From a virus, in IMG/VR virus record IMGVR_UViG_3300034782_000062, positions 32,001 to 96,000 of that record: a DNA stretch of 64,000 nucleotides. The stretch is one strand, 5' to 3'. The notes under the pieces are model-generated. The model ran no database searches. It was not told where the DNA came from and saw only the letters and a list, made by a program, of their open reading frames with translations. Shown here one piece after another: positions 6,918 to 27,423 of the stretch. The translations under genes and the position numbers were made by a program. Position 1 is the first letter of the stretch. Each line of letters begins with the position of its first letter.

Positions 6918-7688
6918 CTACATCTCCAGCGGCTGCAGCACCTTGAAGCCGTCGAATGTAATCTTGAGCTGAAGGTTGACGGGACCTGAATCGATTTCTT
7001 CACCCGACCCGATCGAAAGGATTGGAACAGCTCTGAGGGGGTTGCAGATGAAGCTGATCGTCGTGCCGGCAGCGAAGATTTCATTGTTCATGAAATATCC
7101 GTCGTCGTCACGGCGAAACAGGATATCCCCGCTGATAGGCTTGTCCTGACGGTTTCGCTCGCTTCCGCCATCGCTGTACTGCCACTCGAAATCGAGAGGC
7201 GGCGCTATGTAGCCATCGAATGGAGGTGTACCGGTACTGAACGCAAGCTGAGCTGCGTCACGTGCCCAGTTGAAGTACTCAACCCTCGAAGTGACAGGTG
7301 CAAACCGACCGATAAAGTCGGTATAGTCCGCTGTTCCGAGACCGATCACCTCCAACGATGGGGCTTCGGTGTAGATGAGCGAAGCAAACAGTCTTCGGGC
7401 GATGAATGGACCGTCTCGGCTGACGTTCACCGTCCCCGTCACGGGAGCCTGAGACCCACCTGGCAGGTTGATGTTGATCTGATACTTGTACGGGAGTTGC
7501 TTGCCAGGCATGTCGTCGATGTGAACTTCTTGGCGCTCCAGCGTCTCGCGAGCCTTCCGTTCATCCGCCAGCTCGGCAGAAAGGCGCTGGTTTTCGACAA
7601 CAGCCTCATCGATCTGCCCCTGAAGCTTGCGCAGTTCGAACGCGACCTCAGGTGCAATAACTCGCCGCTTTCCGTTGTTGTTTGGCAT
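6918..7688 (-). CDS. Candidate single-jelly-roll capsid protein with N-terminal coiled coil
   Basis: YKYQINI..., GPFIARRL, final strand LQLKITFDGFKV; GGAGG RBS. Confidence 0.55.
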   Translation of the reverse strand: MPNNNGKRRVIAPEVAFELRKLQGQIDEAVVENQRLSAELADERKARETLERQEVHIDDMPGKQLPYKYQININLPGGSQAPVTGTVNVSRDGPFIARRLFASLIYTEAPSLEVIGLGTADYTDFIGRFAPVTSRVEYFNWARDAAQLAFSTGTPPFDGYIAPPLDFEWQYSDGGSERNRQDKPISGDILFRRDDDGYFMNNEIFAAGTTISFICNPLRAVPILSIGSGEEIDSGPVNLQLKITFDGFKVLQPLEM

Positions 7689-12455: not shown

Positions 12456-12665
12456 CTATCCCTGACGGCAGCGCTGCAGGCGCAACTGTGCTGCTCGATG
12501 CTCCAGCGTCGCCAAATGCAACTCATGTTCTCGCAAACGCAATTCTTCTTCGTATGATGCACAAAGCGAAACAGCTCTAGCGGGCGGCACGGGGGCATGT
12601 GTTCTCACACGAGTAGGTGCTGCTGCACCTAGCCCACCCTGCACCCTCTGATACTCGTAAGACAT
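12456..12665 (-). CDS. Small protein with YEY-GLG leader
   Basis: MSYEYQRVQGGLGAAA; GGAGAG RBS. Confidence 0.6.
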   Translation of the reverse strand: MSYEYQRVQGGLGAAAPTRVRTHAPVPPARAVSLCASYEEELRLREHELHLATLEHRAAQLRLQRCRQG

Positions 12666-12675
12666 GCTCTCCTCC

Positions 12676-13179
12676 TTAATCGATTGCGCCTTCTTCACGC
12701 AAACGTTCTTTCTGCTTGTAGCCGATGTAGAGTCCGACAGCGAAAGGAACGAGACCAGAGCCTCCAACGTAACGACCGCTGCCCTGACTCACACTTTCGA
12801 GGCCAGCAGAGACGATGGTCAGCACGATGCCCGCGCCAATACCAGCAAGACCGCCGTAGATGGCACCCTTCTTCGCCGCCTCCTTCTTGTATCCCTTCGC
12901 TCCGGTAATCGCTGCACCAGCAGCTCCGAGCGCGAACGGCATGGCAATTCCAATCACGACGATCCCAAGCAGGAGAAGAGCGAGTGCCCCGACGCCAGCT
13001 CCGATGGCAAGAGCCCTCGTTCCGTTGTCTGCAGGAGCTGGAACGCCCGTATCAACAAAAGCCTGATCTTCGAGCTGCAAACCAGGAACGGTAACTGCCA
13101 CCGGCTCAGCGCCGTTGCCATTTGTACCAAGTCCGAATCCCATCATCGACTCGTAAGTCGCTGGAGTGTACTCGTACAT
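12676..13179 (-). CDS. Multi-TM membrane protein with YEY leader
   Basis: MYEYTPATYESMMGFGLGTNG; 3-4 hydrophobic helices. Confidence 0.8.
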   Translation of the reverse strand: MYEYTPATYESMMGFGLGTNGNGAEPVAVTVPGLQLEDQAFVDTGVPAPADNGTRALAIGAGVGALALLLLGIVVIGIAMPFALGAAGAAITGAKGYKKEAAKKGAIYGGLAGIGAGIVLTIVSAGLESVSQGSGRYVGGSGLVPFAVGLYIGYKQKERLREEGAID

Positions 13180-13188
13180 CGTCCCCTC

Positions 13189-13548
13189 CTACGCCCTTGC
13201 GCGAGAAGCAAGACGCTGCGCTCGATCCAGCTCGTAGCTTGCCCTCAGCTCTCGCTCCCATTGCTTCTGTTGCCAAATCCCGACGACCGCACCTGCACCA
13301 GATGGAATAGCAAACGTTCGCAACCAGAACAGGACCCCACTCATCGGAACAATCGCCTGAGCGGCTTGTGCCAGCGCAACAGCAGCGACGCCGCCCTCAA
13401 TGACGGCGTACTTGCGGTCCATTGGAGAAACGATGGCAGCAGCAGCTCCGCCGAGCGCGAACTGCGCCAGGACAAGTCCGAAGTTCCCCATCGAGGTCTC
13501 CGGTTGCCCCATCCCAACAGCTTCTTCCCAATATCCCAGCATCGCCAA
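13189..13548 (-). CDS. Multi-TM membrane protein
   Basis: MAMLGYWEEAVGMG leader; three hydrophobic segments. Confidence 0.75.
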   Translation of the reverse strand: MAMLGYWEEAVGMGQPETSMGNFGLVLAQFALGGAAAAIVSPMDRKYAVIEGGVAAVALAQAAQAIVPMSGVLFWLRTFAIPSGAGAVVGIWQQKQWERELRASYELDRAQRLASRARA

Positions 13549-13554
13549 TCTCCT

Positions 13555-13896
13555 TTATGACTTTTGAACGACGTCAAACACCTTGTGGGTGCCGCCCTTG
13601 AAGTTCTCCACCTGTTTTATGTCGCGCAGGTGCCCAATGATCCTAACGCGGTATGCCTTATGAGGACTTGTGGCGTAAGAGAATCGATAGCTTTGTGTCG
13701 AGCCCACGTAACAGTTGATATCGAGACGACCTACAACACGAGGCATAATCCCCGGATACCACTCGTCCAGCTCGGCCTGAAGCTCCCGGTTTGGAGCACG
13801 CTGCCCGCACGGTGCTACACGAAGAGTGACACTCCCACCAGACTGACCACCAGCAGCGCCACCCATCGAGCTTTTTGTTGTGTACTCGTAGCTCAT
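13555..13896 (-). CDS. Small soluble protein with YEY leader
   Basis: MSYEYTTKSSMGG, start right after the upstream stop. Confidence 0.7.
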   Translation of the reverse strand: MSYEYTTKSSMGGAAGGQSGGSVTLRVAPCGQRAPNRELQAELDEWYPGIMPRVVGRLDINCYVGSTQSYRFSYATSPHKAYRVRIIGHLRDIKQVENFKGGTHKVFDVVQKS

Positions 13897-13897
13897 A

Positions 13898-14650
13898 TCA
13901 CCCCTCGATCCCATGTGAGGTGATGCGGAGGTTGGGGCCGTCTATGACACTCTCGACTCCTCCTCCGTCCAGGTTGATGATCGCCAAGAAAACTCGGTTC
14001 GGTCGCCGCGGATCAACCCACCCGTCAGGTGACGCGACCAAAACGTTCTTTCCCTTCATCGTACCCTCGGTGATCTCTCCAGTATCCAGGGGCCGAACGA
14101 CGAATCCAATACACTCTCCGATGAGCATCACCTCTTCTGGCCAACCGTAAGGAAGCTGCACTGGTTCGAGTGCGCCTCCCTCATCTGAAGGAACCATGAA
14201 CTTCACAACGTTTCGATCGTGATCGTGGTAGTACTCGACGGTCTCACCGCGCTGGTGCCATTTGTCACTCTCATAGAGCGTTCGCATTGCGACACCGAGT
14301 AAGCTCACCTGCTCAGGCCAGTCAACACCTTCCAGCTCGAATACCGAGTGCTCCTGCCCGTGAAAAGGGAAGACCGGTTCAAGTTTCTTGCGCGAGTGAA
14401 AGCGCTTGAACGTTTTCGCTGCAGCCTGCGCCGACCTTGCGTCGTTTCGCTCGATGGGCGAACCTGGGTTCGGACGCTGATGACGCAGCTCTCGCTGAAT
14501 CTTGTCATAGACCTCTTCAGCTCGCTCGCGAGTGACGGTGATCCCCTCACGAGCCTGCGTTGCGATGATCGTCCTGATCATCAGTTCGCGTCGTTCGATC
14601 GGGTCATTGAGAATATCGCGCACTTGGACGCGCCGCCTACTGCGAGCCAT
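13898..14650 (-). CDS. Hypothetical two-domain protein
   Basis: 250 aa; helical N-terminal domain, PNP linker, beta-rich C-terminal domain. Confidence 0.75.
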   Translation of the reverse strand: MARSRRRVQVRDILNDPIERRELMIRTIIATQAREGITVTRERAEEVYDKIQRELRHQRPNPGSPIERNDARSAQAAAKTFKRFHSRKKLEPVFPFHGQEHSVFELEGVDWPEQVSLLGVAMRTLYESDKWHQRGETVEYYHDHDRNVVKFMVPSDEGGALEPVQLPYGWPEEVMLIGECIGFVVRPLDTGEITEGTMKGKNVLVASPDGWVDPRRPNRVFLAIINLDGGGVESVIDGPNLRITSHGIEG

Positions 14651-14652
14651 GT

Positions 14653-15057
14653 CTACTCCATCTCCGACTCGAAGGTACCGAATCTTTCGTCCTGAGGACG
14701 ATTATCAAGTCTGGTTGTCAGCCAGAGAAGTGCCGTCGGAACGACGATCGCTAACCCAACGCACAGCCATGGATTGATCGGTGTCTGGGTGCTCACCTCG
14801 GAAACAATTTCACCCATTGCGAGAGAGCCTGTTCCAACATACTTCGCCCTTGGTGGAAGACTGTGGCCCGAGGTATCTGGGGCTTCGCCGAGAGCGCTTC
14901 CGAGCGCTGGCGAAAAAGGCGGCGGCGGGACTTCCTCACCGTACTTGGGACGATCAGGCTCTGGAGCCTGATAGTATTTGTACTTCCCGGTCGTCCAATC
15001 CCAAACGCTGTACATTCCATTGGTCGCGATCGCGCCGTAATTAACTCCGGGCCTCAC
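14653..15057 (-). CDS. C-terminally anchored membrane protein (YSVWDW..GKYKYY motif)
   Basis: C-terminal TM; aromatic N-terminal motif. Confidence 0.7.
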   Translation of the reverse strand: MRPGVNYGAIATNGMYSVWDWTTGKYKYYQAPEPDRPKYGEEVPPPPFSPALGSALGEAPDTSGHSLPPRAKYVGTGSLAMGEIVSEVSTQTPINPWLCVGLAIVVPTALLWLTTRLDNRPQDERFGTFESEME

Positions 15058-15350
15058 AGCTCCTCCACCTCCTCCTGCTTAGACTTGTGCAAGAGGTACG
15101 CCCCAATGAGCACCATCGCCGGAACAGATGCCCACATCCATGGGCGCATCTGCTCGATCATCATTTGCGTCTGCAATTGCGCAACACGGGCTTGCTCTTC
15201 TTGTCGAATAGCCTGTTGCCTCTGTTGCTCCAGCCTCTCCCTCTCTCCCTCGGACACTGAACGCGATATGGCATAGCCAGCCCATCCCGTACCAACAACC
15301 AACGGAACGCCATACAACAGAGCAGGGACCCACCATGGATTTGGCTGCAT
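15054..15350 (-). CDS. Two-TM small membrane protein
   Basis: TM - Q/E/R coil - TM; starts MQPNPWW. Confidence 0.7.
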   Translation of the reverse strand: MQPNPWWVPALLYGVPLVVGTGWAGYAISRSVSEGERERLEQQRQQAIRQEEQARVAQLQTQMMIEQMRPWMWASVPAMVLIGAYLLHKSKQEEVEEL

Positions 15351-15623
15351 CTATCGCTCTCTCTTCCTTAGGATAAAATACATCCCCAGGATGGCTGTCG
15401 CTGGGATTGCGATCATCCCCATCGGAACGAGCAGCCCGTACATTGCTTGCGACTGAGCCGCCGCTGCACGTCGTCGCTGCTCCTCAATCTGCTGCTGCTG
15501 GTCCTGAACTTCCGTCGTTCCGTTCTGTTGAAACGCACCAAAGGCCATACCGGCAAAAATCAACGAACCACCGATGAGGATCGGATAGGCAGCAGCAGCA
15601 ATTGGTCCGAAGTTTCGCTCCAT
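15351..15623 (-). CDS. Two-TM small membrane protein, same architecture as 15054-15350
   Basis: Start MERNF by TGATG coupling; TM - Q-rich coil - TM. Confidence 0.7.
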   Translation of the reverse strand: MERNFGPIAAAAYPILIGGSLIFAGMAFGAFQQNGTTEVQDQQQQIEEQRRRAAAAQSQAMYGLLVPMGMIAIPATAILGMYFILRKRER

Positions 15624-16297
15624 CACGACCTCTTCTTGAACTTCCATGCGGCGTAAAGCATGAACATGGCCGCTGCAGAGGTCCCAATCACAAGAGCCCA
15701 TGGGAGCTGAATGCCAAGATCGAATCCACCTCCTGGTCCGGCCGGTACAAGAGTTCCGGCCATCCTCTGAGCATCAGCCGCAGAGAACCCCATCCGAAAG
15801 AGAGTCGCTTGATCCGGGGTCCCTGTCTGCGGAATACCACCGCGCGCTTGGGATGCCCGAATAGCCGCTGCGAATGACGTTGCTTCCCCAACACCATCAA
15901 TCGGACCCGGATCAATACCCATTGAGCAAAGACGCGATTGAATATCCCAAATGACCCGTGAACGAGACGTCGTCAGGCTGTTCCTGTCGACGCGATGGGA
16001 CTGACACGTCGCTACCGAAGGCTCTATCCGCCCACCAGCCTGAGTAGGACATGCCAGGAAAGGACGAGGCCAGTGGGGTGGACAGCACCACGTCGAACCA
16101 GCCACTCCCTCAACCGAACACGTCTGCCCTCTGGCAGAAGGAACGCATCCCCCCTCACGAGCACACGCCCCTGCATCTGCCGTATTCTCGAAGCATCGAG
16201 TGACACCCCCTCCAACAACTTCTGAGCAGGGGGGGTTACCAGAAATATCCGTCCAGCCGGGGCCGACGAGCCCGAGCCCTGTCGAGTACTCGTACAT
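15623..16297 (-). CDS. YEY-leader protein: Cys-rich CCP domain, peptidoglycan-binding domain, C-terminal TM
   Basis: MYEYSTGLG; WCCPP; DIQSRLCSMGIDPGPIDG...QTGTPDQATL (PG_binding_1-like). Confidence 0.8.
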   Translation of the reverse strand: MYEYSTGLGLVGPGWTDISGNPPCSEVVGGGVTRCFENTADAGACAREGGCVPSARGQTCSVEGVAGSTWCCPPHWPRPFLACPTQAGGRIEPSVATCQSHRVDRNSLTTSRSRVIWDIQSRLCSMGIDPGPIDGVGEATSFAAAIRASQARGGIPQTGTPDQATLFRMGFSAADAQRMAGTLVPAGPGGGFDLGIQLPWALVIGTSAAAMFMLYAAWKFKKRS

Positions 16298-16950
16298 CAG
16301 CCCATCTCCTCTGAGAACAGCATGCGCTCTTCTCGCTTCCGGTCGAAGTAGCGCTTGCCGAGATAAGCCGCCGTCCCCAGGATGCCTACAGCAACCCAAA
16401 CCTTTGGATCGGACAGAATCTTTCCGATGCCAGTGATCGGCGTCGTCGTGATCCTCGCTGTCGGTGTCGATCCTTCAGGAGGAAGCTCTTTCGTCGGAGA
16501 CTGAACAGGCGGCTGCGTAGTCGTAGGAGGTTCCACCGTCGGAAGACCGGGAATCTCGGGCGGCAAAGGGAGCTGTGCCTCCTCCTCACGAATCTGAGCG
16601 GCCTCCGGAGTCTCGGGATCGGCCCGCGGTGTTCCACTCGGGCAGCAAAAGCAAAAACCGGGGTTACCAGAAGCAGTCTCACAGCGCTTCGGCTCATCTC
16701 CGGTGAGAAACGTCTGCATATTCTGAACGCAGCCGTAGAGGTTGGCGACGTTGAGGTCTGGAGGATAAACTTCACCAGCGTTCTGTGGATCCTCCATGAA
16801 GCAAACTTCGTCCGGAGGATACTGTCTTCCTACGTCATCCGTCGTACACATACACTGAGGACGACCAAAGAGCGGGGCCAAATCCCAACTGCTCATCACA
16901 GACCAGCCGAGAGCACCGAGACCGCCAGGTCTTCTGTTGTACTCGTACAT
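16297..16950 (-). CDS. YEY-leader Cys-rich CCP protein, Pro/Thr stalk, C-terminal TM
   Basis: MYEYNRRPGGLGALGW; CFCCPS. Confidence 0.8.
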   Translation of the reverse strand: MYEYNRRPGGLGALGWSVMSSWDLAPLFGRPQCMCTTDDVGRQYPPDEVCFMEDPQNAGEVYPPDLNVANLYGCVQNMQTFLTGDEPKRCETASGNPGFCFCCPSGTPRADPETPEAAQIREEEAQLPLPPEIPGLPTVEPPTTTQPPVQSPTKELPPEGSTPTARITTTPITGIGKILSDPKVWVAVGILGTAAYLGKRYFDRKREERMLFSEEMG

Positions 16951-17402
16951 CAGATGTGCCCCTCTCTCTTCAAATACCGATACCCAAACCAGCCGCCGAC
17001 CCCGAGAGCCAACAACGCCACGACCGGACCAAACATCGAGGCAGATGCCACCTGCGGCAAAGCTGGAGGCTGAGGAGAAGTAGGCACTGGCTGAGGCTGC
17101 GGTTGCGGTTCTGGCTCTACCGGAGCTGGCTCGGCGGGCTGCACTGGGAAGTCTGGGAATCCAGGAGGACAGCACCAGACGGCACCAGCATTATTCTCCG
17201 CGGTGTTGCAAGGCCACCCAATTCGCTCACAAGCTCTGTCATAAGCGAACTGGTATTCATCCGGCTCCACGAAACAGTATTGATTCCCCCCTGGAAACTC
17301 CAAGCACTGCTTCTGTGTCCTCTCTCCGCTGAAGATCTGACCGAACGTTGGAGGTTCATTGACCTGCGACCAGCCCATCCCTCTGGGGTTGTATTCGTAC
17401 AT
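16950..17402 (-). CDS. YEY-leader Cys-rich CCP protein, C-terminal TM
   Basis: MYEYNPRGMGW; six Cys ending WCCPP. Confidence 0.85.
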   Translation of the reverse strand: MYEYNPRGMGWSQVNEPPTFGQIFSGERTQKQCLEFPGGNQYCFVEPDEYQFAYDRACERIGWPCNTAENNAGAVWCCPPGFPDFPVQPAEPAPVEPEPQPQPQPVPTSPQPPALPQVASASMFGPVVALLALGVGGWFGYRYLKREGHI

Positions 17403-17405
17403 GGA

Positions 17406-17843
17406 TCAGAACTCCTCTTCGAGTTCCAGCTCTTCTCGCTTCGCCTCGTACTCCTTGTAGCCAAAAAAGGCGATGCCAGCGAGACCAAGTGCTCCAAGCC
17501 AGAACCACCACCGGCTCGATGACTGCTGAAACCATCGACCGATACCCGGTGGCGCAGGCGGCGCAGGCGGCGTCTGACCCGGTTCCAGAGGAGGCGACCC
17601 CGGTGGACGCGGCCAACCAGGAGGACAGCACCAGACGAGACCCGGGTTTCCAGCCGGTGAGGTGCTGCAAGGCTGATTGATCGGAGCGCACCCCTGAGCA
17701 CGAGCGAAATCTTGCTCGGGCGGCTGACCATCAACGGTCGTCGTTCGAAAACAGCGCTGCTCGTAGCCCGGATAGTCAGGACACATCGGATGACCGACGA
17801 CGTCCGACCAACCGAGGCCGTACATCTGCCTAAAACCGCCCAT
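17406..17843 (-). CDS. Cys-rich CCP protein, C-terminal TM
   Basis: MGGFRQMYGLGW; six Cys ending WCCPP. Confidence 0.85.
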   Translation of the reverse strand: MGGFRQMYGLGWSDVVGHPMCPDYPGYEQRCFRTTTVDGQPPEQDFARAQGCAPINQPCSTSPAGNPGLVWCCPPGWPRPPGSPPLEPGQTPPAPPAPPGIGRWFQQSSSRWWFWLGALGLAGIAFFGYKEYEAKREELELEEEF

Positions 17844-18762
17844 AGCGCTCCTCCTCGAACTCGAACTCTTCTTCCTTCTTTCGAGTCATGTAGGCACCAA
17901 GGACGATGATCCCCAGAAGACCAAAGCCTGCAGCAGCCCACGGGACCCAGGATGGAAGTCCGGTTGTCGGAATCGAAGGCCCCATCGACGCGGTTTGAAC
18001 TCGCGGCGGTTGCTGCGCGACGCTGGGAGGCACAGGTAGCGGAGAAAACGATGGCTTCACTACGGTAGCGACACCCGTCGGGAACGTCGTTGGTGTAGTC
18101 GTAACGGGAGGAGGGCCGGATGGAACGGTCATCCTCTGAGCGACAGTCGGGAACTGCTGAACGACCTGTTGCCAGCTCTGGCGAGCAGCAAGGCATCGGA
18201 CGCCGGCCTCGGTCTCATCGCCCCATCGACCATCGACCCCATAGCGGGGGAGAGTACATCCAGCAGCAATGACTGCGTTCTGCACTGCCTCTACCTGAGG
18301 GTCGGGCGGCAAAACAGTGCGAGCAATCCTTCTTCCAGCGGCAGCAACATTCTCCGCAAATCTCGTCAGAAGACCCTCTGCCTCTACGATTTCTTCGGCC
18401 GTGGGCGCCGGAAGTCGATTCATTTCTTCAGGGCTCAGAGCTTCTGCAAAGGTCAAGTAGTAATCACAGTCACCGGGGATATTAGGAGGACTCATCACGT
18501 TGCAATATGTTGCAACTTCAAAATTGCTGCATGGGGCGCCGCCTGAATCTACTCGACACGCCTCTGCTGCCGTAAATAGTCGTCGACATTCCGTAAAGTC
18601 AGTGCCGATCCTGTCAGGGGCGAGGTTAAAACAGACGTCTCTGGCTTGTCCCCGAGAGAGAACACCTGTCTGAACGTCGCGAAGGAGATCGGCTCCATCA
18701 CGGCCTTCGCCGTTTGTGCCCAAAGCGCCAAGCCCACCAGGTGTTCTTCGGTATTCGTACAT
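17830..18762 (-). CDS. YEY-leader protein: Cys-rich helical domain, PG-binding domain, C-terminal TM
   Basis: MYEYRRTPGGLGALGTNG; AGCTLPRYGVDGRWGDETEAGVRC. Confidence 0.85.
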   Translation of the reverse strand: MYEYRRTPGGLGALGTNGEGRDGADLLRDVQTGVLSRGQARDVCFNLAPDRIGTDFTECRRLFTAAEACRVDSGGAPCSNFEVATYCNVMSPPNIPGDCDYYLTFAEALSPEEMNRLPAPTAEEIVEAEGLLTRFAENVAAAGRRIARTVLPPDPQVEAVQNAVIAAGCTLPRYGVDGRWGDETEAGVRCLAARQSWQQVVQQFPTVAQRMTVPSGPPPVTTTPTTFPTGVATVVKPSFSPLPVPPSVAQQPPRVQTASMGPSIPTTGLPSWVPWAAAGFGLLGIIVLGAYMTRKKEEEFEFEEERYGRF

Positions 18763-18780
18763 TTTAAATGTTTAACCTCT

Positions 18781-19464
18781 TTAATAGGCGCCTGTCGGTG
18801 CCTCGACCCAGCGTGCCTCTCTCTCTTCAATGTCCACGTCGCCGACACCTCGGCCGCTCATCAGGTACTGCATCAAGATGAAAAGACCGATACCACCAAC
18901 ACCCACTGCCAAAATGGTCCAAGTTGCGTTCCACTCAGAACGGGCCGGTGTAGGCTGAATCGGCTGCGAGGGTTGCGTTGCGACTGGCGCTGCTGCCGCT
19001 ACAGGCCGTGGACGAAATTCCTCCGGCACCTCCACCAAAGAAAGCACAACAGGATATCGCCCAACGATACTTCCCCATCCGACAGCCTGCGCCAAACAGT
19101 TGATCCCGGAACGCGTTTCGGACCCGAAGAGACCATCTGCGCCGTAGGTCGGCAGCCTACAGCCTGCTCGAAGAATAGCCATCTGAAGCTCGCGCACCTT
19201 GTCACGTCGAGGGCAGCAGTAGTACGCACCAGCGTCTGTGGCGTCTGGCTGAGCGCAATAGGGCTCACCACCAACCTGCACTCCAACACAAGCCCGACTG
19301 TCTGCTCGACCCTCCTGCCCGGAAGGAACGCAGGCGACCTCGCCATCAGCCATCGGGAAGTCGGCACTTCCACGGCATGATTGGCCGATCCAGCTCCATG
19401 CCCCATTGGAACCGAGTGCCCCAAGGCTCATCAAAGGCCGACGTGTTCTTGTCCGCATATACAT
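18781..19464 (-). CDS. CCP domain plus PG-binding domain, C-terminal TM
   Basis: MYMR...SLGALGSNG; YYCCPR; AGCRLPTYGADGLFGSET. Confidence 0.8.
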   Translation of the reverse strand: MYMRTRTRRPLMSLGALGSNGAWSWIGQSCRGSADFPMADGEVACVPSGQEGRADSRACVGVQVGGEPYCAQPDATDAGAYYCCPRRDKVRELQMAILRAGCRLPTYGADGLFGSETRSGINCLAQAVGWGSIVGRYPVVLSLVEVPEEFRPRPVAAAAPVATQPSQPIQPTPARSEWNATWTILAVGVGGIGLFILMQYLMSGRGVGDVDIEEREARWVEAPTGAY

Positions 19465-19472
19465 GTCACACC

Positions 19473-19811
19473 TCACACAACGAAGGGAACGAGCGAGAAC
19501 GCTCTACCAATACCGTCCGCATAGGCGAACGTCGGCCCAATCGCCGGCCATGGGGCCAGCATATTCGGGTACATCGGCTCACTTCTAAGCTTGTTGTAAA
19601 GAGCAAAGCCGACGGCACCAACCGCCATCGCAAGAGCGACCTTTACCCAAAAATTGAACCGAGTCGCCTGATCCGTCACCATAGACGCCGTCTGCGTGAC
19701 CTGGTCTCCGTTCGTTCCCATTCCCTGAGGAAGGAGAGGTCGAGCAGGATTGTAGGGAACGAGGGTGCTCAGAGGAGAGAGCTGTCGACCCTTCGTCGTG
19801 TAGATGTACAT
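19473..19811 (-). CDS. Small membrane protein with YIY leader
   Basis: MYIYTT...QGMGTNG; one TM; TGATG coupling. Confidence 0.65.
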   Translation of the reverse strand: MYIYTTKGRQLSPLSTLVPYNPARPLLPQGMGTNGDQVTQTASMVTDQATRFNFWVKVALAMAVGAVGFALYNKLRSEPMYPNMLAPWPAIGPTFAYADGIGRAFSLVPFVV

Positions 19812-20293
19812 CAGTATCCCTCCAGCTCCATCTCCTCCTGGCGATTCTTCGCCCATCGCCAGACGAGATATCCACCGATACCCATGACACCCACCGTCAC
19901 TAGGACGGTTCCGATGCCCATGCCGATACCGGCGCCCGCTGCGGTTGCAGCAGCAGGGATCATGGACGCCGCCACCTGCTGTCCATCTCTGGGTGCAGGA
20001 ATCGCTGCTGCTCGGGCCAGCTCAGCGTCGAGGACTCCAGGCGGGCAGCAGTAGAAAACTCCCTGGTTACCCTCATCGGTATAGCAGTGGTGGTTTCCTT
20101 GGAAGCCAACTGTTCTACATCCGATGCGCTGCAAGTATTGAATCTCGGCGGAGCGACCACAGATGAGGTCACTGCTCGGGTCCATTGGGTTCGCGGCTGG
20201 ACCTGAGCACGTTTGCTGAGAGAAACGATGTTCCTGACCTGGAACGGTAAAACCACCGGTCCAGCCAAGGCCTTGACGGGCTCTTGTATACAT
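19811..20293 (-). CDS. CCP-domain membrane protein
   Basis: MYTRARQGLGW; FYCCPP; C-terminal TM. Confidence 0.8.
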   Translation of the reverse strand: MYTRARQGLGWTGGFTVPGQEHRFSQQTCSGPAANPMDPSSDLICGRSAEIQYLQRIGCRTVGFQGNHHCYTDEGNQGVFYCCPPGVLDAELARAAAIPAPRDGQQVAASMIPAAATAAGAGIGMGIGTVLVTVGVMGIGGYLVWRWAKNRQEEMELEGY

Positions 20294-20712
20294 CAGAATT
20301 GACCTCTTCTTTCTCGCTCCTCTTCCATTTTTGCTGTGACATAGGAGCCGATCATGATGATGCCGACGAGACCGACACCGGCAGCGGCCCATGGAAGCCA
20401 TGCTGGAGTCTGACCGTTTCCTGTGACTCGGGGAACGACAGAGGCGACCTGCTGCGCCACTCCCTGTTGTTGGGGAATTGTCATCCTCTGAGCGACCCAG
20501 GGCCAGCTCTGGAGAACGAAATCCCAACCGCGGCGCTCCGCGAGACAACGAGTACCCGCCTCGGTCTCTGAGCCCCATCGGCTGTCGCGGCCAAACCGCG
20601 GAAGAGAACAGCCGTTTTCGAGTATGGCACTCTGAATGGAACCAACCTGCTCCTCAGGCTCTGTTCCCAGGCCCATCATGCCCCGACGACTTCTGGTGGT
20701 GTACTCGTACAT
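20293..20712 (-). CDS. YEY-leader PG-binding-domain membrane protein
   Basis: MYEYTTRSRRGMMGLGT; NGCSLPRFGRDSRWGSETEAG. Confidence 0.85.
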   Translation of the reverse strand: MYEYTTRSRRGMMGLGTEPEEQVGSIQSAILENGCSLPRFGRDSRWGSETEAGTRCLAERRGWDFVLQSWPWVAQRMTIPQQQGVAQQVASVVPRVTGNGQTPAWLPWAAAGVGLVGIIMIGSYVTAKMEEERERRGQF

Positions 20713-20721
20713 GACGACCTC

Positions 20722-21519
20722 CTAATATCCGAGCGCGGCCAGCTCAGCCTCTTCCAGCTCGGCTTCTTCTTCCTCGCCCCTCTTGTAGAGGTAGTATCCG
20801 CCGGCTGCGAGAAGACCAACGCCTCCGAGAATGGCGAGCCAGCCCCACCAAGGCATTCCGCCAGGAACGATGCCAGCCTGCTGAATAGCAGGAGCACCCG
20901 GGGCGCCTGTCGTGGTGGTTGCTGCAGCTCCTCCGCTTGCATAGCGAACGCCGCCCTGTTCAGGGGTCTTCGACCCGGTCGCACCGGGGTCAAAGATCAT
21001 TCCGGATGGACGAGCCGCTCCGGAAGGATCGGCCATCAGTGTGCTGAGGAACGGGAAGCGCCCGGCCACGTTGGTCCAGCTCGTCTGGCCCACTGCGCAT
21101 TCGACACCACTGCGCGTGTTCGGCCCCCAGACACCATCAGCACCCGTTGAGCCGACAGAACAGCCTTGCTGGACAAGCCAGTTCTGCATCTGACGAATCT
21201 GATCACGGCTCACTGCCTGCTGGACGATCGTGCTGGGCTCTCCGGCACCAGGGCGCCCTGGCGGACAGCACCAGGTGTTTCCAGAAGCTCCCGATGATGT
21301 TCGGCAAGCCCCGGTGCCACCTCCCTGCTCAGGATACGTGACCTGGCACCCCTGGCTCACCATGAAGCCCTGTTCGCCGGTAGTAGCACAGGCAATCGTG
21401 CCACCTCCCTCACAAGGGATGCTCCGAGCGATTTCCCGACTCATCGGGATTTCCCAGTTGTACGACCACCCGAGCGCTCCCATGCCCAAACCACCGGGCT
21501 TCCTTACATATTCGTACAT
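20722..21519 (-). CDS. YEY-leader CCP plus PG-binding membrane protein
   Basis: MYEYVRKPGGLGMGALGW; WCCPPG; GCSVGSTGADGVWGPNT. Confidence 0.85.
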   Translation of the reverse strand: MYEYVRKPGGLGMGALGWSYNWEIPMSREIARSIPCEGGGTIACATTGEQGFMVSQGCQVTYPEQGGGTGACRTSSGASGNTWCCPPGRPGAGEPSTIVQQAVSRDQIRQMQNWLVQQGCSVGSTGADGVWGPNTRSGVECAVGQTSWTNVAGRFPFLSTLMADPSGAARPSGMIFDPGATGSKTPEQGGVRYASGGAAATTTTGAPGAPAIQQAGIVPGGMPWWGWLAILGGVGLLAAGGYYLYKRGEEEEAELEEAELAALGY

Positions 21520-21541
21520 TTTTAGCTCCTACTCTTTGCCC

Positions 21542-22405
21542 TTAGTATCCGAGCGCGGCCAGCTCAGACTCTTCACGCAGCACGTCTTCTTCCTCTCCCT
21601 TTCGGTAAAGGTAAAGACCACCCAGCGCGAGAGCGCCGACGCCTCCGAGCAGGCCCATCCAGCCCCACCAAGGCATGCCACCCGCGACCATTCCGGCCTG
21701 AGTGACCGGTGTTGTCCCCGGTGTGGTTCCAGTGCTTGCCACACGACCACCAGGGATGATGGTCTGGCCCGCAGCAACCTGCTCCGGTGTCTTTGTTCCC
21801 ACAACAGGAGGCTGAAAAACGAAGTCTGCAGGACGCGCCTGTCCGGTTGGAGTCTGCCTCATCGTGGCGACGAAGGGGAAGTTCGCAGCGATCACAGTCG
21901 CGTTCCCCTGAGCCTCAGCACACCGAACGGCCGTCGCTGTATCAGGACCCCAGATTCCATCGATGCCGTGTGTGCCGACAGAACAGTTGATGGACTCCAG
22001 CCACTGCTGAAGCTCACGAATGTCAGCACGGGACGCTCCAGCCTGAGTCACAGCCGCGCCCTCACCCGGCGTTGCACGGGGGCGACCAGGAGGACAACAC
22101 CAGACCAAGCCAGCGTTTGCCTCCGTCGTTGGACCTGTACCCGTGAAGCAAATTCGAGTGGAACCGCCCAGTTCGGTGTCGAGGTTCATGGGCCTGCAGC
22201 CTTCATTGGCCATGAAGGTGCTTTCTGCTGTTCGACCACAGGTCACGGTCCCTGAGCCATCCGGCGTTTGACACGAAGGGCCACGGAATGTCTGACCAAA
22301 TGAGGTAAAGGTGGGCATCCAGCCCAAACCGCCCGGGACGGGAACGTATTCGTGGCTGTTCTTCGAAGCGCCCAAACCGCCCGGCCTTCTTACGTACTCG
22401 TACAT
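21542..22405 (-). CDS. Tandem paralogue of 20722-21519 with a doubled leader
   Basis: MYEYVRRPGGLG...HEYVPVPGGLGW; WCCPPG; GIDGIWGPDT; near-identical C-terminus ELAALGY. Confidence 0.85.
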   Translation of the reverse strand: MYEYVRRPGGLGASKNSHEYVPVPGGLGWMPTFTSFGQTFRGPSCQTPDGSGTVTCGRTAESTFMANEGCRPMNLDTELGGSTRICFTGTGPTTEANAGLVWCCPPGRPRATPGEGAAVTQAGASRADIRELQQWLESINCSVGTHGIDGIWGPDTATAVRCAEAQGNATVIAANFPFVATMRQTPTGQARPADFVFQPPVVGTKTPEQVAAGQTIIPGGRVASTGTTPGTTPVTQAGMVAGGMPWWGWMGLLGGVGALALGGLYLYRKGEEEDVLREESELAALGY

Positions 22406-22409
22406 GGTT

Positions 22410-22676
22410 TCACTCTCCTCTTCTCTTCGTGAGGTAGTAAGAAAGGCCCAGCGCAGCCACCGCGCCGAGGCCAAACCAGAACAGACCCGACGACGTAAAT
22501 GGGCCTGATACATTCGTCGTTGCTTGCACAGGTGGCTGAGAAGGGATCGCCTGGCTCTGAGCCTGAATCTGCTGCGCCCCTTGCTGGACCTGTGATGCAG
22601 TTTCCATGGCCTGTGCCACGATGAAGTCAGTGATCTGGTCGATGTTCTCCGCCGTCTGTTGGAAGTTGTTCGACAT
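22410..22676 (-). CDS. Small C-terminally anchored membrane protein
   Basis: Start MSNNFQ with RBS; TM GLFWFGLGAVAALGLSYYL followed by TKRR. Confidence 0.7.
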   Translation of the reverse strand: MSNNFQQTAENIDQITDFIVAQAMETASQVQQGAQQIQAQSQAIPSQPPVQATTNVSGPFTSSGLFWFGLGAVAALGLSYYLTKRRGE

Positions 22677-22678
22677 GA

Positions 22679-23050
22679 TCAATCCTTCGTCAGAAAAACT
22701 GTTATCGCCAAGACCGACGTCACAATGCTCGCACCTATGGCGATCTTCATGAGGCGCTGTGCACGTTCCAGCTCGGCTCGCGTTTCCTGAGCCTCCTGCA
22801 CCAGCTCCTGAGGCCGCTGCTGAAGCCAGCTCATCCACTCGCTGACGTTGAGCCCTGAGGACTCAGTACCCCCATCAGTCCCGAGCGCCGAGGTCACAGC
22901 ATACTGACGCTCACCCATGTGCCTCGGGTAGACCCACATCCGCCTACCAGAAACTGGGTTGATGAGCAGGTAGTAATCGCCAGGCTTCACGTGCGGCCTG
23001 ACAAAATACATCGGGACGCTGACTGGTTTTCGTGCAAGCTTCGATGCCAT
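22679..23050 (-). CDS. Small C-terminally anchored membrane protein
   Basis: Internal SALGTDG; C-terminal TM. Confidence 0.7.
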   Translation of the reverse strand: MASKLARKPVSVPMYFVRPHVKPGDYYLLINPVSGRRMWVYPRHMGERQYAVTSALGTDGGTESSGLNVSEWMSWLQQRPQELVQEAQETRAELERAQRLMKIAIGASIVTSVLAITVFLTKD

Positions 23051-23059
23051 CGGCTGCTC

Positions 23060-23527
23060 CTACTCTTCTTCTCGATACTTCTTGATGAGCATCTGAATAC
23101 CAAGAGCTGCAGCCGCCCCCGCACCCAGCCAGAAGAGCTTGGCGCCGAACGTTGTTCCCTGCTGAGCAGGCGCCTCCGTGGTGCCCATGCTCGGCCCCTC
23201 CAGGACGATGCCGTAGGAGGACGACCCCGGATAGAGCGGACGACCCGGACGTCTGAGCATATTCCACTGCATGTCCGGTGCAGCAACCTCGTAGTCATAT
23301 CGAGCATAGTCATCGAAGAAAATGCCAGTGTTGCTCGGCGGTTCAGTGTCGCCGCTGAAGATCCCGTTGTCTTCGCCCTCGTAGCCGAAGATTCCGCTTC
23401 CGATCACCTTCGGGAGTCGGCCAGTCGGCGCGGCACCGTTGATGACATTGACGCCCTTGAATCCAAGGCGCTGGCGGTACCTTTCCTCACGGGGCGGAGC
23501 TTTTACGATGCTCTTTGGTGGTGCCAT
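23060..23527 (-). CDS. C-terminally anchored membrane protein with GIF repeats
   Basis: Start MAPPK; SGIF, NGIF, TGIF; C-terminal TM. Confidence 0.7.
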   Translation of the reverse strand: MAPPKSIVKAPPREERYRQRLGFKGVNVINGAAPTGRLPKVIGSGIFGYEGEDNGIFSGDTEPPSNTGIFFDDYARYDYEVAAPDMQWNMLRRPGRPLYPGSSSYGIVLEGPSMGTTEAPAQQGTTFGAKLFWLGAGAAAALGIQMLIKKYREEE

Positions 23528-23535
23528 TGTTCCCT

Positions 23536-24069
23536 CTAATCCTTTTTCCGAGTCAGCAGCCAAATGCCAACGATCCCGAACGTCAGCACCAAGCCCCCTA
23601 TCACGATGTAGGGGACATATGACCTCTGTGGCTGAACCACGAGGGGAGCCGCAGTCGATGTTGGAGAAGGCGTTTCTTCTGACGCCGCCTCTCCCTCATC
23701 CGCTGAAGCTGTCGTTGACTGAGCTGGTGCAGGAGTTGTCGTCGTTGGAGCGCCCTTTCCGCTGGGCGCTGGAGCTGCCCCAGTCGGCGTTGCGCCGCTT
23801 GGCTGCTTTCCACCGGGCGCTCCAGTTGAAGACCCCGTAACCTCAGTCGCCGTATTGCTCGCAAACTGCTGAGCGAGCCCGGAGAACAGATTAGCGATCC
23901 CCGAGTAGATGCTTGTATCGCCCGAAGACTCCCTACCACCCTGAAGCTCTGGCGGCATCGGACGAAGACCCATTCCAGCGGACACCAGATCCTCTGGCGT
24001 CGCGAAATCCATGTCTGGGTTATCGATGTCGCCGTTCGTCCCCAGGCCAGTCATATACTCGTAAGACAT
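23536..24069 (-). CDS. YEY-leader protein with Ala/Pro/Thr stalk and C-terminal TM
   Basis: MSYEYMTGLGTNG. Confidence 0.8.
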   Translation of the reverse strand: MSYEYMTGLGTNGDIDNPDMDFATPEDLVSAGMGLRPMPPELQGGRESSGDTSIYSGIANLFSGLAQQFASNTATEVTGSSTGAPGGKQPSGATPTGAAPAPSGKGAPTTTTPAPAQSTTASADEGEAASEETPSPTSTAAPLVVQPQRSYVPYIVIGGLVLTFGIVGIWLLTRKKD

Positions 24070-24732
24070 CTACTTTTTCCTCACGAGCAACCAAATACCG
24101 ACACCAGCGAAACCGAAGACAAGCAGCCCTCCGACGATGTAAGGAGCGATCGTTGACCCGACAGAAGGCATAGGAGCTGTTACAGCAGCGGGCGAAGGAC
24201 CAGGAGGAGGAAGGGTTTCCGTGGCTGCTGCAGCACCCGCGCCGGGAACCATCACCTGACCTGTGAGGTTGGCCGCGGTTTCCATGGCAACGCCCTGTGC
24301 CTCTTGATTTGCCTGACCCCCGATACCAAGTTTCGTTGCGACCGTCTCAAACATCGCACCGACGTCGGTAGGCCACCACGTCTGCTTTTCTGCTGTTGGG
24401 GCCGGTTCACCTGCTGCTGTTGCCGGAGCACCAGTAGTAGGGCACGAAGCCCCTACCAAGCGCTCATATTGTGAAAAAGCTGGGTCGCTGGAAAATCGAG
24501 AACGAAATCCATCGAGAACGCGACGCGCCTCATCACATCGATTCGCACGAGCAAGAGCCTGTGCTCGACGTAGAGCGTAGTTCTGAGGAGTTGCCGGGTC
24601 TTCGCGCTCCGCTTGTTCCAGAAGACGAATTGCTTCTGAGTAGTTCCCTGAATCGTAAGCGGTGCGTGCCTGCGCAGAGAGTCTTTCCGCCTCCTCGACG
24701 GTCCCCATCCCGGTCATATATTCGTAAGTCAT
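24070..24732 (-). CDS. YEY-leader TPR-like domain membrane protein
   Basis: MTYEYMTGMGT; ARTAYDSGNYSEAIRLLEQA...DP...ALRRAQAL TPR pattern. Confidence 0.8.
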   Translation of the reverse strand: MTYEYMTGMGTVEEAERLSAQARTAYDSGNYSEAIRLLEQAEREDPATPQNYALRRAQALARANRCDEARRVLDGFRSRFSSDPAFSQYERLVGASCPTTGAPATAAGEPAPTAEKQTWWPTDVGAMFETVATKLGIGGQANQEAQGVAMETAANLTGQVMVPGAGAAAATETLPPPGPSPAAVTAPMPSVGSTIAPYIVGGLLVFGFAGVGIWLLVRKK

Positions 24733-24740
24733 GATTCTAC

Positions 24741-25370
24741 CTAGTCTTTCTTCCTTATGACCAGCCAAACAAGGAAGGTTCCGAGGCCGATCGCCGTCGA
24801 GGCCAGTGTGATATGGGTCTGGTATCGCTCTATCCAGGTCTGTTCTTCGGCAGCTTGCTGGCCGGCAGAGTCCGGAGGAGTCTCCTCAATAGGGAGAACC
24901 TCGTTCTCGGCGGCTGCGCCTGTACGAAGAGCCGCTTCCTGTGCATACGTCGCAAAGCCCTGGGCAGTGGGCTTGTTTGCGCCTGTGCCACCTGGCATAG
25001 GGGCCGCTGGAACCTGTTGACCTGTAGGCATACCAATGGCTCCCTTGACCCAATCGACGATACCCCCTGTATCCTGAGATGGGGCAGCCCCTGGCTGAGC
25101 CGCTACGGTCGACTCTTCTTCTTCTCTGACAGCTTCGCCGAGGATAAGAGTAGGAGTGGATGGACAGCAGTAATGCTGACACGCCTCGTTCAGCCTTCCG
25201 ACCTGACCAGTGTCACTGGGTATCTCAACACAGCTCATTCGACTGGCGGTGGATGCCTCTCTCGGCCTGAAACAACGTTTCTGACCCGTCACAGAGCCCT
25301 GCGTACAAGCTCCTCTTGGGTCCGAAAATCCGAGAGAACCCAAGCCAGGACCGTAGTAATGATAGGACAT
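24741..25370 (-). CDS. CCP-domain membrane protein with YHY leader
   Basis: MSYHYYGPGLGSLG; HYCCPS; C-terminal TM. Confidence 0.8.
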   Translation of the reverse strand: MSYHYYGPGLGSLGFSDPRGACTQGSVTGQKRCFRPREASTASRMSCVEIPSDTGQVGRLNEACQHYCCPSTPTLILGEAVREEEESTVAAQPGAAPSQDTGGIVDWVKGAIGMPTGQQVPAAPMPGGTGANKPTAQGFATYAQEAALRTGAAAENEVLPIEETPPDSAGQQAAEEQTWIERYQTHITLASTAIGLGTFLVWLVIRKKD

Positions 25371-25378
25371 CGTTTACC

Positions 25379-25870
25379 TTAATCCTTCATCTTGGAGACG
25401 AGCCACACGCCGCCGATGACAACCCCTGTCACTCCGACTCCAACGACAGCCCAGACCCACATGGGAGTAGGCCGACTCCCTCCAAATGTTCCACCGACGC
25501 GGGCTTGAGCCTCGCGAGCGAACGCAGCCGCTTGTTCACGGCTGATCTCTTCAGCAAGTTCCCGCTCCTGTGCGGAATACTCACTCGCGATGCCTCTACG
25601 AGCCTCGTTGATAGCATCACGCTCAGCGTTCGCTCTTTCATCGAAATACTGTTGCCTTGCCATGTCGTCGAGCATCGACGACATTCCGGATTCGCGCCCC
25701 TCAGCGTAGGCACCCTGCTGGTAACGAATCTGGTCGATGGTGTTGATCGCACCAAAGATCGCACCGACCGTACTTCCAACAGCGCCAGCGGCTGCACTGG
25801 CGTAGTCTCCGGCCGTCGTTCCCATGCCGACATCGCCCCCATCAGGGGCACCTACGAAGACGAAGCTCAT
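25379..25870 (-). CDS. Coiled-coil membrane protein
   Basis: GDVGMGTT leader, amphipathic/hydrophobic helix, coil, C-terminal TM. Confidence 0.75.
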   Translation of the reverse strand: MSFVFVGAPDGGDVGMGTTAGDYASAAAGAVGSTVGAIFGAINTIDQIRYQQGAYAEGRESGMSSMLDDMARQQYFDERANAERDAINEARRGIASEYSAQERELAEEISREQAAAFAREAQARVGGTFGGSRPTPMWVWAVVGVGVTGVVIGGVWLVSKMKD

Positions 25871-25879
25871 CGAAGCCGC

Positions 25880-26770
25880 CTACTCCTCTTCGTCTTTCTT
25901 CTTGGACATGTACCAGAACACGCCACCGACGCCGCCTGCGAGAACGAGCGCGAGAAAAATCCAAACGACCGGTGAGGTACCCTGCTGAGTGACGATCGGA
26001 GCCGCTGTCGTTGACGGCGCAGACGACACAGCAGCTTCCGTCTCACGAAGAGCCCGAAGCTCTTCTGCACGCTGCGACAGCTCCTCAAGACGAAGCTCAT
26101 GCTCCTGCTGACGGGCGAGCTGCTCGGTCTGGAACGCCATGTCACGAGCCTCAGACTCAGCTTCCATTTGCTCGCGACGAAGCTGAGCTTCCAGCTCCAT
26201 CTCGGCCTCCGCTCGCTGATGACCCGTGACCGTTGTGGCGATACCGACTCCCAGCTCAGAGAGCGGAGCCAGGATAGAGCCGATGCCTTCCATGATTCCG
26301 CCAGCTCGTGATCCGTTGGTACCCATCCCCATGTCGCCGTCGTTGCCCATGCCGCCGCCATACAATCCGCTCGGGCCGATCGAAGGTCCATAGGTGACGT
26401 AAGTGCCAGGCTGCACCCTTCGAGCAGCTCGGCCACCAACATTCACCACTGGAGAACCAGCGGCTCTTTGCGCTGCTTCACCGTTCATGGCGAAGCGGGC
26501 GCCATTCTCCATGTCGTAGTAGTACATCTGCCCACCTTTATCTCCATTGCCCCTTCGAATTGGAGCTGATTCCGCACCAAGAGTCGCAGCCTGTTGAAAC
26601 CTCGGCCGCTGAGGCACAACGCGGCGAACGGGGCGGCGGGGTGCCTGAACATGCGGAGCAGCACTCACATCTTCTTCGACGGTGCCGACGTATTCAACAT
26701 CGTCATCGTTTCCATTTCCGTTTGCTCCGTAGCTTGTCATGTCTTCATCAAGAGCATCCCACTCGCTCAT
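25880..26770 (-). CDS. Membrane protein with long N-terminal extension, coil and C-terminal TM
   Basis: Internal MGMGTNG; C-terminal half has the same architecture as 25379-25870. Confidence 0.8.
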   Translation of the reverse strand: MSEWDALDEDMTSYGANGNGNDDDVEYVGTVEEDVSAAPHVQAPRRPVRRVVPQRPRFQQAATLGAESAPIRRGNGDKGGQMYYYDMENGARFAMNGEAAQRAAGSPVVNVGGRAARRVQPGTYVTYGPSIGPSGLYGGGMGNDGDMGMGTNGSRAGGIMEGIGSILAPLSELGVGIATTVTGHQRAEAEMELEAQLRREQMEAESEARDMAFQTEQLARQQEHELRLEELSQRAEELRALRETEAAVSSAPSTTAAPIVTQQGTSPVVWIFLALVLAGGVGGVFWYMSKKKDEEE

Positions 26771-26787: not shown

Positions 26788-27423
26788 TCAGTCGCTTGAC
26801 TCATAGATCCTGTATTGCTTGACTCGCTGATGCATCCGCGGGGTTCGAGGTCCAGCGACCGGGTCGACTGTCACCCAACCACCACTCCCCTTCGCCGCCT
26901 GAGCGAAGACATGAGTGAATGGTCCAGGAAGCCTTGGATGCGGTGATGACATCAGACGAAAGGCGGGGTCCTCAAACAGCCTTGGATTCGGCGATTTACC
27001 GTTCGTCGGACGAAATCCGACGGTGACTATTCGACTTCTCCCACCGATTGAACCAATTGAGGCTCTCAAGAACGTAGCAAACTCATCGCAGTCGATGAGC
27101 GTCGAGCCGTAGTTGTCGATCTCCCACAAGATTCGCAGAGGATCCTTGACCTGCTCGACCTTTCGAGGGTCTCGCGTGTACCGGAACTGCGGGCCACATG
27201 TCCAGTAGTAAACCGCAAGGATTTCGCTCCAGTAATCTCGGGGACGAACGTATCGAATGATATCTTCGACTCGCTCACGAAGAGCGAACGACTTCTGACC
27301 GCGCTCACCGTCAGCAATGCGGAACATCTCACGCACTGTTTGCGGAGTTCCGCGGTATTTCATCACATTTACGGTCTGGTTTCCGGCCACCGGCCACACT
27401 CCGGCTTTAAAAATACCTGCCAA
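26788..27423 (-). CDS. Transglutaminase-like (Cys-His-Asp) protein
   Basis: IDCDEFA ... THVFAQ ... WVTVDP triad motifs; start uncertain (TTG 27423 or ATG 27363). Confidence 0.8.
   Translation of the reverse strand: MAGIFKAGVWPVAGNQTVNVMKYRGTPQTVREMFRIADGERGQKSFALRERVEDIIRYVRPRDYWSEILAVYYWTCGPQFRYTRDPRKVEQVKDPLRILWEIDNYGSTLIDCDEFATFLRASIGSIGGRSRIVTVGFRPTNGKSPNPRLFEDPAFRLMSSPHPRLPGPFTHVFAQAAKGSGGWVTVDPVAGPRTPRMHQRVKQYRIYESSD

Follow-up and report, generated by a model that had tools for sequence, protein, structure and literature searches.

Many small membrane proteins in a structural gene module are typical of membrane-containing viruses (PMC6356626). In PRD1, of the Tectiviridae, small membrane proteins are recruited to the host membrane and end up in the virion, and the change of the viral membrane into an entry tube depends on them; the virion also carries a cell-wall-targeting activity in the form of the muramidase P15 (PMC6356626). 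The entry apparatus of poxviruses is made up of 11 small proteins, six of which have a C-terminal membrane domain; its sets of paralogues are kept in all members, and its proteins contain intramolecular disulfides (PMC3386626). Here, we describe an array of small membrane-protein genes in a 64,000-nucleotide stretch of viral DNA (referred to as the window), which corresponds to bases 32001-96000 of the 182,770-bp IMG/VR virus record IMGVR_UViG_3300034782_000062, a record that CheckV estimates to be about 95% complete. A domain with six conserved cysteines, here called the [WYF]CC-P or Cys domain, occurs nine times in this array, in the genes labeled A, B, C, D, F, H, J, K, and Q.

As modeled, the [WYF]CC-P domain is a previously undescribed alpha+beta head of about 70 residues that would be held by three disulfides. 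The nine proteins that carry it look like conserved membrane machinery that engages the cell wall, not a fast-changing receptor repertoire. Our preferred reading, to which we give a probability of roughly 45%, is that the domains are the disulfide-stabilized heads of late structural membrane proteins, probably of the virion membrane, and that they engage the cell envelope. Both the virion-membrane location and the role in cell-wall engagement are what we infer for the proteins of the array.

A Family of Six-Cysteine Domains

The nine proteins share a common plan in which an N-terminal domain of roughly 70 aa with the framework C-C-C-C-[WYF]CC-P is followed by a low-complexity stalk, a C-terminal membrane helix, and a charged tail. 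Nearly all array proteins, with or without the Cys domain, begin with the leader M(S/T)YEY..G[LM]G. The initial annotation had listed the nine genes by coordinates that are all the low ends of minus-strand open reading frames (ORFs) and had described about six cysteines ending in [WYF]CC-P in each of them; this description is upheld, as the nine domains align over six cysteines. It had also described a stalk and a membrane helix after the domain, both of which are present, but in A, F, J, and K a peptidoglycan-binding domain intervenes.

Evidence that the nine domains form one family comes from several comparisons. Paralogue-against-paralogue BLASTP gives E values of 1e-5 to 1e-16, and the paralogous domains are 25-46% identical to one another. 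Leave-one-out profiles, from which the tested copy and any sequence at least 40% identical to it had been excluded, find every copy with E values ranging from 7e-18 for gene C to 1.5e-7 for gene Q, with gene B at 2.2e-10. Across 102 domain instances, drawn from the window, five related loci, and database hits, all six Cys columns are kept in 95, [WYF]CC in 99, and the proline after the CC pair in 90. Genes A and B have cysteines beyond the six aligned ones.

The [WYF]CC-P family is rare. A search of 1.84 billion cluster representatives with the nine-domain profile returned 58 proteins at E values up to 1e-3, which are 116-356 aa long and all share the leader, the Cys framework, and the C-terminal helix. 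Among 5.8 billion clusters, only eight relatives of protein J are present, one of which lies on a 290-kb contig. A scan of metagenome contigs yielded five related loci (L002-L006). No relatives were found in IMG/VR with either protein J or an alignment, no relatives or provirus among 185,579 prokaryote genomes, and no tenth copy of the domain elsewhere in the 182,770-bp genome. Two of the database proteins, P0020 and P0021, are D-like and have two membrane helices. Between these helices, a further helical repeat rich in Cys (CSPxQL..C) precedes an internal GMQGLGW with a Cys domain, an arrangement which suggests that G[LM]GW is part of the domain and that MYEY is a separate leader element.

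Predicted Disulfide Bonds and Modeled Fold

Consensus spacings between successive cysteines are 7-15, 9-23, 5-16, 3-16, and 0 residues, and the consensus contains no CxxC pair and no conserved histidine. The number of cysteines is even in 12 of the 13 Cys-bearing array proteins, the exception having a single cysteine within its membrane helix, and in 54 of 58 database homologues, as compared with 75 even and 89 odd counts for the remaining ORFs of the genome. The peptidoglycan-binding domains that are attached to Cys domains carry an invariant Cys pair of their own. From such patterns, the six cysteines of the [WYF]CC-P domain are predicted to form three disulfides. A natural variant encoded at 2109-2744 of locus L005 has lost both C2 and C4 and no other Cys column; this joint loss suggests a C2-C4 bond, in which case C1 and C3 would be bonded to the CC pair. 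Zinc fingers of the zinc ribbon, treble clef, and Zn2Cys6 types were considered and rejected, since the domain has neither CxxC/CxxH nor Zn2Cys6 spacing, and no zinc-finger structure is among the matches of the Foldseek and VIA structure searches.

AlphaFold2 modeling of full-length J from a 66-sequence alignment gave a predicted local distance difference test (pLDDT) score of 81.5, with about 90 over the Cys domain, and a domain-only model of J (pLDDT 81.3) has a small alpha+beta fold. In the modeled domain, three short strands are followed by a helix, a second and short helix, and then a two-stranded hairpin with the CC pair at its end. The searches brought up no known fold for these models, which is a weaker claim than proof of a new fold. 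With Foldseek against the PDB, the best match of the full J model has an E value of 0.97 (SltB3), probably through the peptidoglycan-binding part, and that of the domain-only model an E value of 2.7. When the domain-only model was compared exhaustively with 48,161 chains by VIA-align 2, the top match was a GNAT enzyme (Z 3.0, root mean square deviation of 2.8 over 42 residues); the list obtained with the full J model was filled by membrane-helix matches and is uninformative. A search of the ESM Atlas gave no usable match for the Cys domain. At the sequence level, the Cys-domain profile matched only IGFBP1 among PDB sequences (E 0.25), and hmmscan against Pfam-A at E values up to 1, run for eight of the nine proteins (all except Q) and for the neighboring array genes E and I, found no Cys-rich family, Chitin_bind_1 included. 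The sole PHROG matches of the nine proteins are to the cell-wall-binding part of endolysins, with none to the Cys domain.

Knottin, hevein (CBM18), and defensin folds, with which the initial annotation had invited comparison, share with the Cys domain a small size, six conserved cysteines, and variable inter-Cys loops. However, the knottin framework is C-C-CC-C-C over about 30-40 residues, whereas the Cys domain has C-C-C-C-CC, is about 70 aa long, and is modeled with five strands and either one or two helices. As this framework is found in 95 of the 102 instances, membership of the knottin (inhibitor cystine knot) class was rejected. The searches matched none of the three folds, and their absence from the Foldseek and VIA lists does not exclude a likeness of fold.

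A Peptidoglycan-Binding Partner

In A, F, J, and K, the Cys domain is separated from the stalk by a PG_binding_1 (PF01471) or PG_binding_1-like domain, its only recurrent partner. The Pfam gathering score for this family is 23 bits. Gene A exceeds it (24.8 bits by hmmscan and 27.4 bits in a six-frame search), gene K scores 21.1 and 23.3 bits by the same two methods, and the more distant family members P0056 and P0022 reach 48.1 and 24.1 bits. Gene F has weak matches to the PHROG endolysin cell-wall-binding part (E 0.008-0.04) and matches E, I, and J across the peptidoglycan-binding-like region by BLASTP (5e-13 to 5e-16). The sub-threshold domains of J, E, and F are connected by BLASTP to one another and to I, the match between I and E having an E value of 1.5e-33. 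In a six-frame search of the genome, PG_binding_1 appears solely within the array, in genes A, K, and E, and no separate endolysin with PG_binding_1 was seen in the whole genome. The only recognizable binding module near the Cys domains is predicted to target peptidoglycan, and its confinement to the array as the one recurrent partner argues that the heads must meet the cell wall at some stage.

Membrane Topology and the Shared Leader

Nearly all array proteins have a single hydrophobic C-terminal helix that is followed by lysine and arginine residues and, frequently, an acidic tail. Within 15 residues of the membrane helix, the 22 array proteins contain 68 lysine and arginine residues on the C-terminal side versus 28 on the N-terminal side, an excess that predicts an N-out, C-in orientation by the positive-inside rule. 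The predicted peptidoglycan binding and disulfides agree with this topology. Alternatively, the proteins may be tail-anchored with cytoplasmic heads, which would later lie on the outer side of a membrane inside the virion and become oxidized after lysis.

The leader is present on about 19 otherwise unrelated small membrane proteins, which are encoded on the minus strand at 12456-26770 of the window and also at 16984-18411 of the genome. Its codons vary synonymously, which shows that selection acts on the peptide. Internal copies are found in K, as HEYVPVPGGLG, and in a basic protein of 1171 aa encoded in the same gene module, as EYLEVPMSGMG repeats, and this recurrence makes it look like a short recognition or processing motif. 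The idea that the leader is a hidden Sec signal was rejected on inspection; its Gly-rich stretch has neither the length nor the hydrophobicity of such a signal, and is nearly absent from C and H. At the head of the cassette lies the gene for a 211-aa protein with a transglutaminase/papain-like C..H..D pattern (..DCDEFA.., ..THVF.., ..WVTVDP..). Its weak matches are to Pfam Transglut_core (E 0.04) and to PDB entry 3phz, the protease-like domain of a fungal lectin (E 0.09). This protein may act as a protease on the leader or core, or as a peptidase on the cell wall.

How the Heads May Act

In the mechanism that we favor, the Cys domain would form the membrane-distal N-terminal end of single-pass, C-terminally anchored proteins from the late structural module, and the nine copies would be old paralogues, each with a fixed and individually conserved role. 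The proteins would be components of the viral membrane that act once the capsid opens, or would act in the envelope of the infected cell. Projecting on Pro/Thr-rich stalks, the heads would engage the cell wall jointly with the peptidoglycan-binding modules that are fused to four of them, and this engagement may serve either genome delivery or virion assembly.

Several observations weigh against this mechanism. There is no obvious need for long stalks between an internal membrane and a capsid. No signal peptide was found in about 100 family members, and a folded N-terminal ectodomain of 90-250 aa would therefore be hard to export. In P0020 and P0021, the leader and the Cys domain lie on opposite sides of the membrane, so that the positive-inside rule is broken either way. 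A search of the genome for the Erv1 (Evr1_Alr), thioredoxin, and DsbA families returned no homologue, and oxidation would thus have to rely on the host periplasm or on exposure after lysis. The suggested pairing of C2 with C4, and of C1 and C3 with the CC pair, has a single variant sequence as its basis. The PG_binding_1-like domains of J (16.8 bits), E (13 bits), and F fall below the Pfam cut-off. Lastly, the profile of the 256-aa capsid candidate from the same module matches only coiled coils among PDB sequences.

It is possible, if rather unlikely, that the proteins are not part of the virion at all and reside in the host cytoplasmic membrane with their heads in the periplasm, where they would tether or remodel the envelope, for example to mark assembly sites, block superinfection, or time lysis. 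The N-out orientation predicted from the charges behind the helix would suit such a location, as would the Pro-rich, TonB-like stalks (PEPQPQPQP in C), which could span the periplasm, and the combination of peptidoglycan-binding domains with disulfides. However, about 20 collinear genes are strictly conserved in the structural module of five divergent relatives, whereas accessory exclusion and lysis genes turn over fast. The missing signal peptide also counts against this location, and Pfam and PHROG scans revealed no recognizable holin, spanin, or endolysin partner.

A bolder proposal of our own, which we hold to be similarly doubtful, would grant this virus of bacteria a poxvirus-like multi-protein entry or envelope apparatus. 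It would be made up of about 20 conserved small membrane proteins, nine of them with a new disulfide-rich fold, that reach the far side of the membrane or the virion without a Sec-type signal. They would be directed there by the non-hydrophobic leader M(S/T)YEY..G[LM]G, which would then be a new export or virion-targeting signal, and the papain/transglutaminase-like enzyme at the head of the cassette may process it.

Conservation of Individual Paralogues

The gene order S-(R)-Q-P-N-M-L-J/K-I-H-G-(F)-(E)-D-(C)-B-A-Z2-Z3 is common to all five related loci, where the counterparts of the array proteins are 30-82% identical to those in the window and the orthologous Cys domains 34-82% identical. 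Orthologues of gene D have 51-74% identity, and the orthologous domain of gene H has 81-82% identity in L003 and L005. For the J orthologue, identity is 54% in the Cys domain, 63% in the peptidoglycan-binding domain, 32% in the linker, and 37% in the tail. The dN/dS of the Cys domains (the ratio of nonsynonymous to synonymous substitution rates) is 0.13-0.40 where computable, although these ratios are rough, as every one of the 27 window-locus pairs has a dS that is either saturated or not computable. Some modular changes are seen. J and K are both present in the window and correspond to a single gene in the relatives, the Q orthologue in L003 (2286-2816) has no Cys domain, and the P orthologue in L005, which is the variant without C2 and C4, has a 4-Cys version of the domain in place of the Cys-poor and apparently helical head of P in the window. 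Some positional orthologues thus differ by a swapped head domain. Collinear, individually conserved paralogues with a dN/dS below 0.4 nevertheless point to an old, functionally partitioned structural set and not to a rapidly varying repertoire.

This bears on the proposal of the initial annotation that the heads form a diversified receptor-binding or decoy repertoire. Such a repertoire would be displayed on the virion surface and track host receptors. The high divergence between the cysteines that it described is confirmed among the nine paralogues and does not extend to orthologues. This divergence, the display of the heads on stalks, and the gain, loss, and swapping of members (J/K, Q in L003, and P in L005) are what such a repertoire would predict. 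Set against this, each paralogue has positional orthologues that are 34-82% identical to it despite saturated dS, in the same order in five relatives, and the domain is no more variable than the remaining protein. Foldseek and VIA found no similarity to a lectin or toxin fold, and the adjoining module targets peptidoglycan, which is not variable as receptors are. The repertoire is therefore judged improbable. More improbable still is a cytoplasmic metal-binding (zinc or iron-sulfur) domain on tail-anchored proteins whose N-terminus stays cytoplasmic, for although no member has a signal peptide, the C-terminal anchor is like that of bacterial tail-anchored proteins, and no viral thiol oxidase gene was found, the absence of CxxC/CxxH spacing and of a conserved histidine, the strong bias to even Cys counts, the fusion to peptidoglycan-binding domains without a cytoplasmic target, and the lack of a zinc finger in the structure searches all speak against it, including the cytoplasmic zinc finger that the initial annotation had weighed.

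Genomic Setting and Virus Type

The array lies inside a block of minus-strand genes that spans window bases 190 to about 32,000 (Table 1). This block is followed by a plus-strand block with replication genes for an AAA ATPase, a helicase, and a PD-(D/E)XK exonuclease. TGATG overlaps occur at four of the array gene junctions, among them that of the gene B stop with the gene A start. Several ORFs extend upstream of the true start, and the likely starts are ATGs of the MYEY type. The neighboring gene E was considered as a tenth, rewired copy of the Cys domain and rejected, as hhalign aligns only its leader to the family profile.

Table 1. Features of the minus-strand module, in window coordinates
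Feature	Coordinates	Strand	Length (aa)	Description
Capsid candidate	6918-7688	-	256	Highly conserved; 70 homologues at 30-96% identity, the contigs being as long as 290 kb; listed together with protein P0104
Basic membrane protein	8717-12232	-	1171	K/R-rich repeats over about 700 aa (RRYRVRKPGGGTYMRRYPTKRRK and similar), followed by three hydrophobic helices, NGNG repeats, and an acidic region
Array	14653-26770	-		About 22 tightly packed co-directional small membrane-protein genes, including nine Cys-domain copies (ORF listing)
Gene A	15623-16297	-	224	Leader MYEY..GLG, Cys domain (16064-16258), PG_binding_1, C-terminal membrane helix, tail KFKKRS
Gene B	16297-16950	-	217	Leader, Cys domain with long inserts (16624-16911), Pro/Thr stalk of about 70 aa, membrane helix, mixed-charge tail
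Gene C	16950-17402	-	150	Leader, Cys domain (17154-17378), Pro-rich (PEPQPQPQP) stalk, membrane helix
Gene D	17406-17843 (alternative start 17825)	-	145	Short leader, Cys domain (17607-17816), Pro-rich stalk, membrane helix, acidic tail ending in F
Gene E (context)	17830-18762	-	310	Array leader, unrelated six-Cys module without CC pair, peptidoglycan-binding-like domain, membrane helix, acidic tail
Gene F	18781-19464	-	227	Leader variant MYMRTR..LGALG, Cys domain (19201-19416), peptidoglycan-binding-like domain with own Cys pair, membrane helix
Gene H	19811-20293	-	160	Leader, Cys domain (20033-20269), Ala-rich linker, membrane helix, acidic tail ending in Y
Gene I (context)	20293-20712	-	139	Leader, peptidoglycan-binding-like domain alone, membrane helix
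Gene J	20722-21519	-	265	Leader, Cys domain (21250-21474), PG_binding_1-like domain, conserved F.P..KTPEQ element, linker, PWWGW membrane helix, acidic tail
Gene K	21542-22405	-	287	J paralogue (46% identity), duplicated leader, Cys domain (22076-22327), PG_binding_1, membrane helix, acidic tail
Gene Q	24741-25370	-	209	Leader MSYHYYGPGLG, most divergent Cys domain (25155-25331; fourth Cys shifted to 3 residues ahead of the CC pair, C-x3-CC), long acidic/Ala/Gln linker, membrane helix, tail RKKD
Cassette-head protein	26788-27423	-	211	Transglutaminase/papain-like C..H..D pattern

The module that contains the array also encodes the capsid candidate and the K/R-rich membrane protein of 1171 aa. 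The acidic region of the latter holds the EYLEVPMSGMG units, which resemble the MYEY..GLG form of the leader, and the protein may be a membrane-anchored precursor that condenses DNA. Searches for the HK97 capsid, Terminase_6N, and FtsK families, the hallmarks of tailed phages, gave no match, and ten proteins of the module have no match in PHROGs. The virus is probably a large, tailless, membrane-containing virus of bacteria. One homologue of the capsid candidate carries the NCBI label of a Planctomycetota metagenome-assembled genome, which is a weak hint at the host that depends on binning only. The TnpB gene of the genome has no close relative in the 185,579 prokaryote genomes.

Comparison with Known Systems

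The clade to which the array belongs consists of very large (180-290 kb) uncultured viruses, and its whole structural module is without a match in the phage protein family library. If the reading of the heads as envelope-engaging structural proteins is true, they would be the first sizeable family of head domains, rich in disulfides and anchored to the membrane, to be described from a bacterial virus, and would provide a way into the question of how tailless viruses of this type get across a peptidoglycan wall. A new small fold would also join the catalogue of disulfide domains, and small stable disulfide scaffolds whose loops vary attract practical interest as binders. The array raises the puzzle of the route by which large N-terminal ectodomains without a signal peptide enter an oxidizing, peptidoglycan-containing compartment.

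Among described modules, the nearest to a part of the array proteins is the PG_binding_1 domain of endolysins and other cell-wall enzymes. The likeness lies in the domains of A and K, which reach the Pfam cut-off, and in the match to the wall-binding part of endolysins in PHROGs. Unlike those enzymes, the array proteins have a membrane anchor fused to the domain, an extra conserved Cys pair, and no catalytic domain.

PRD1 resembles the virus described here in that it encodes many small membrane proteins in late operons near the capsid genes. There is no sequence or PHROG similarity between the PRD1 and array proteins, however, and PRD1 has no Cys-rich head domain, shared N-terminal leader, or nine-fold paralogy. 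Its genome is about 15 kb, as compared with 183 kb here, and the virion location of the array proteins is a prediction.

The poxvirus entry-fusion complex (A16/G9/J5, L1/F9, and L5, among others; PMC3386626, PMC12190314) differs from the array in sequence, as the array proteins have no Pfam match to poxvirus families at E values up to 1, and in redox chemistry, as poxviruses encode a cytoplasmic redox pathway that has no Erv1, thioredoxin, or DsbA counterpart here. The host in the present case is a bacterium with a peptidoglycan wall. The analogy is therefore one of organization only, and in this respect the two systems are alike: both include old, individually retained paralogues and proteins with C-terminal anchors, intramolecular disulfides are conserved in the one and predicted in the other, and both are confined to their own virus group.

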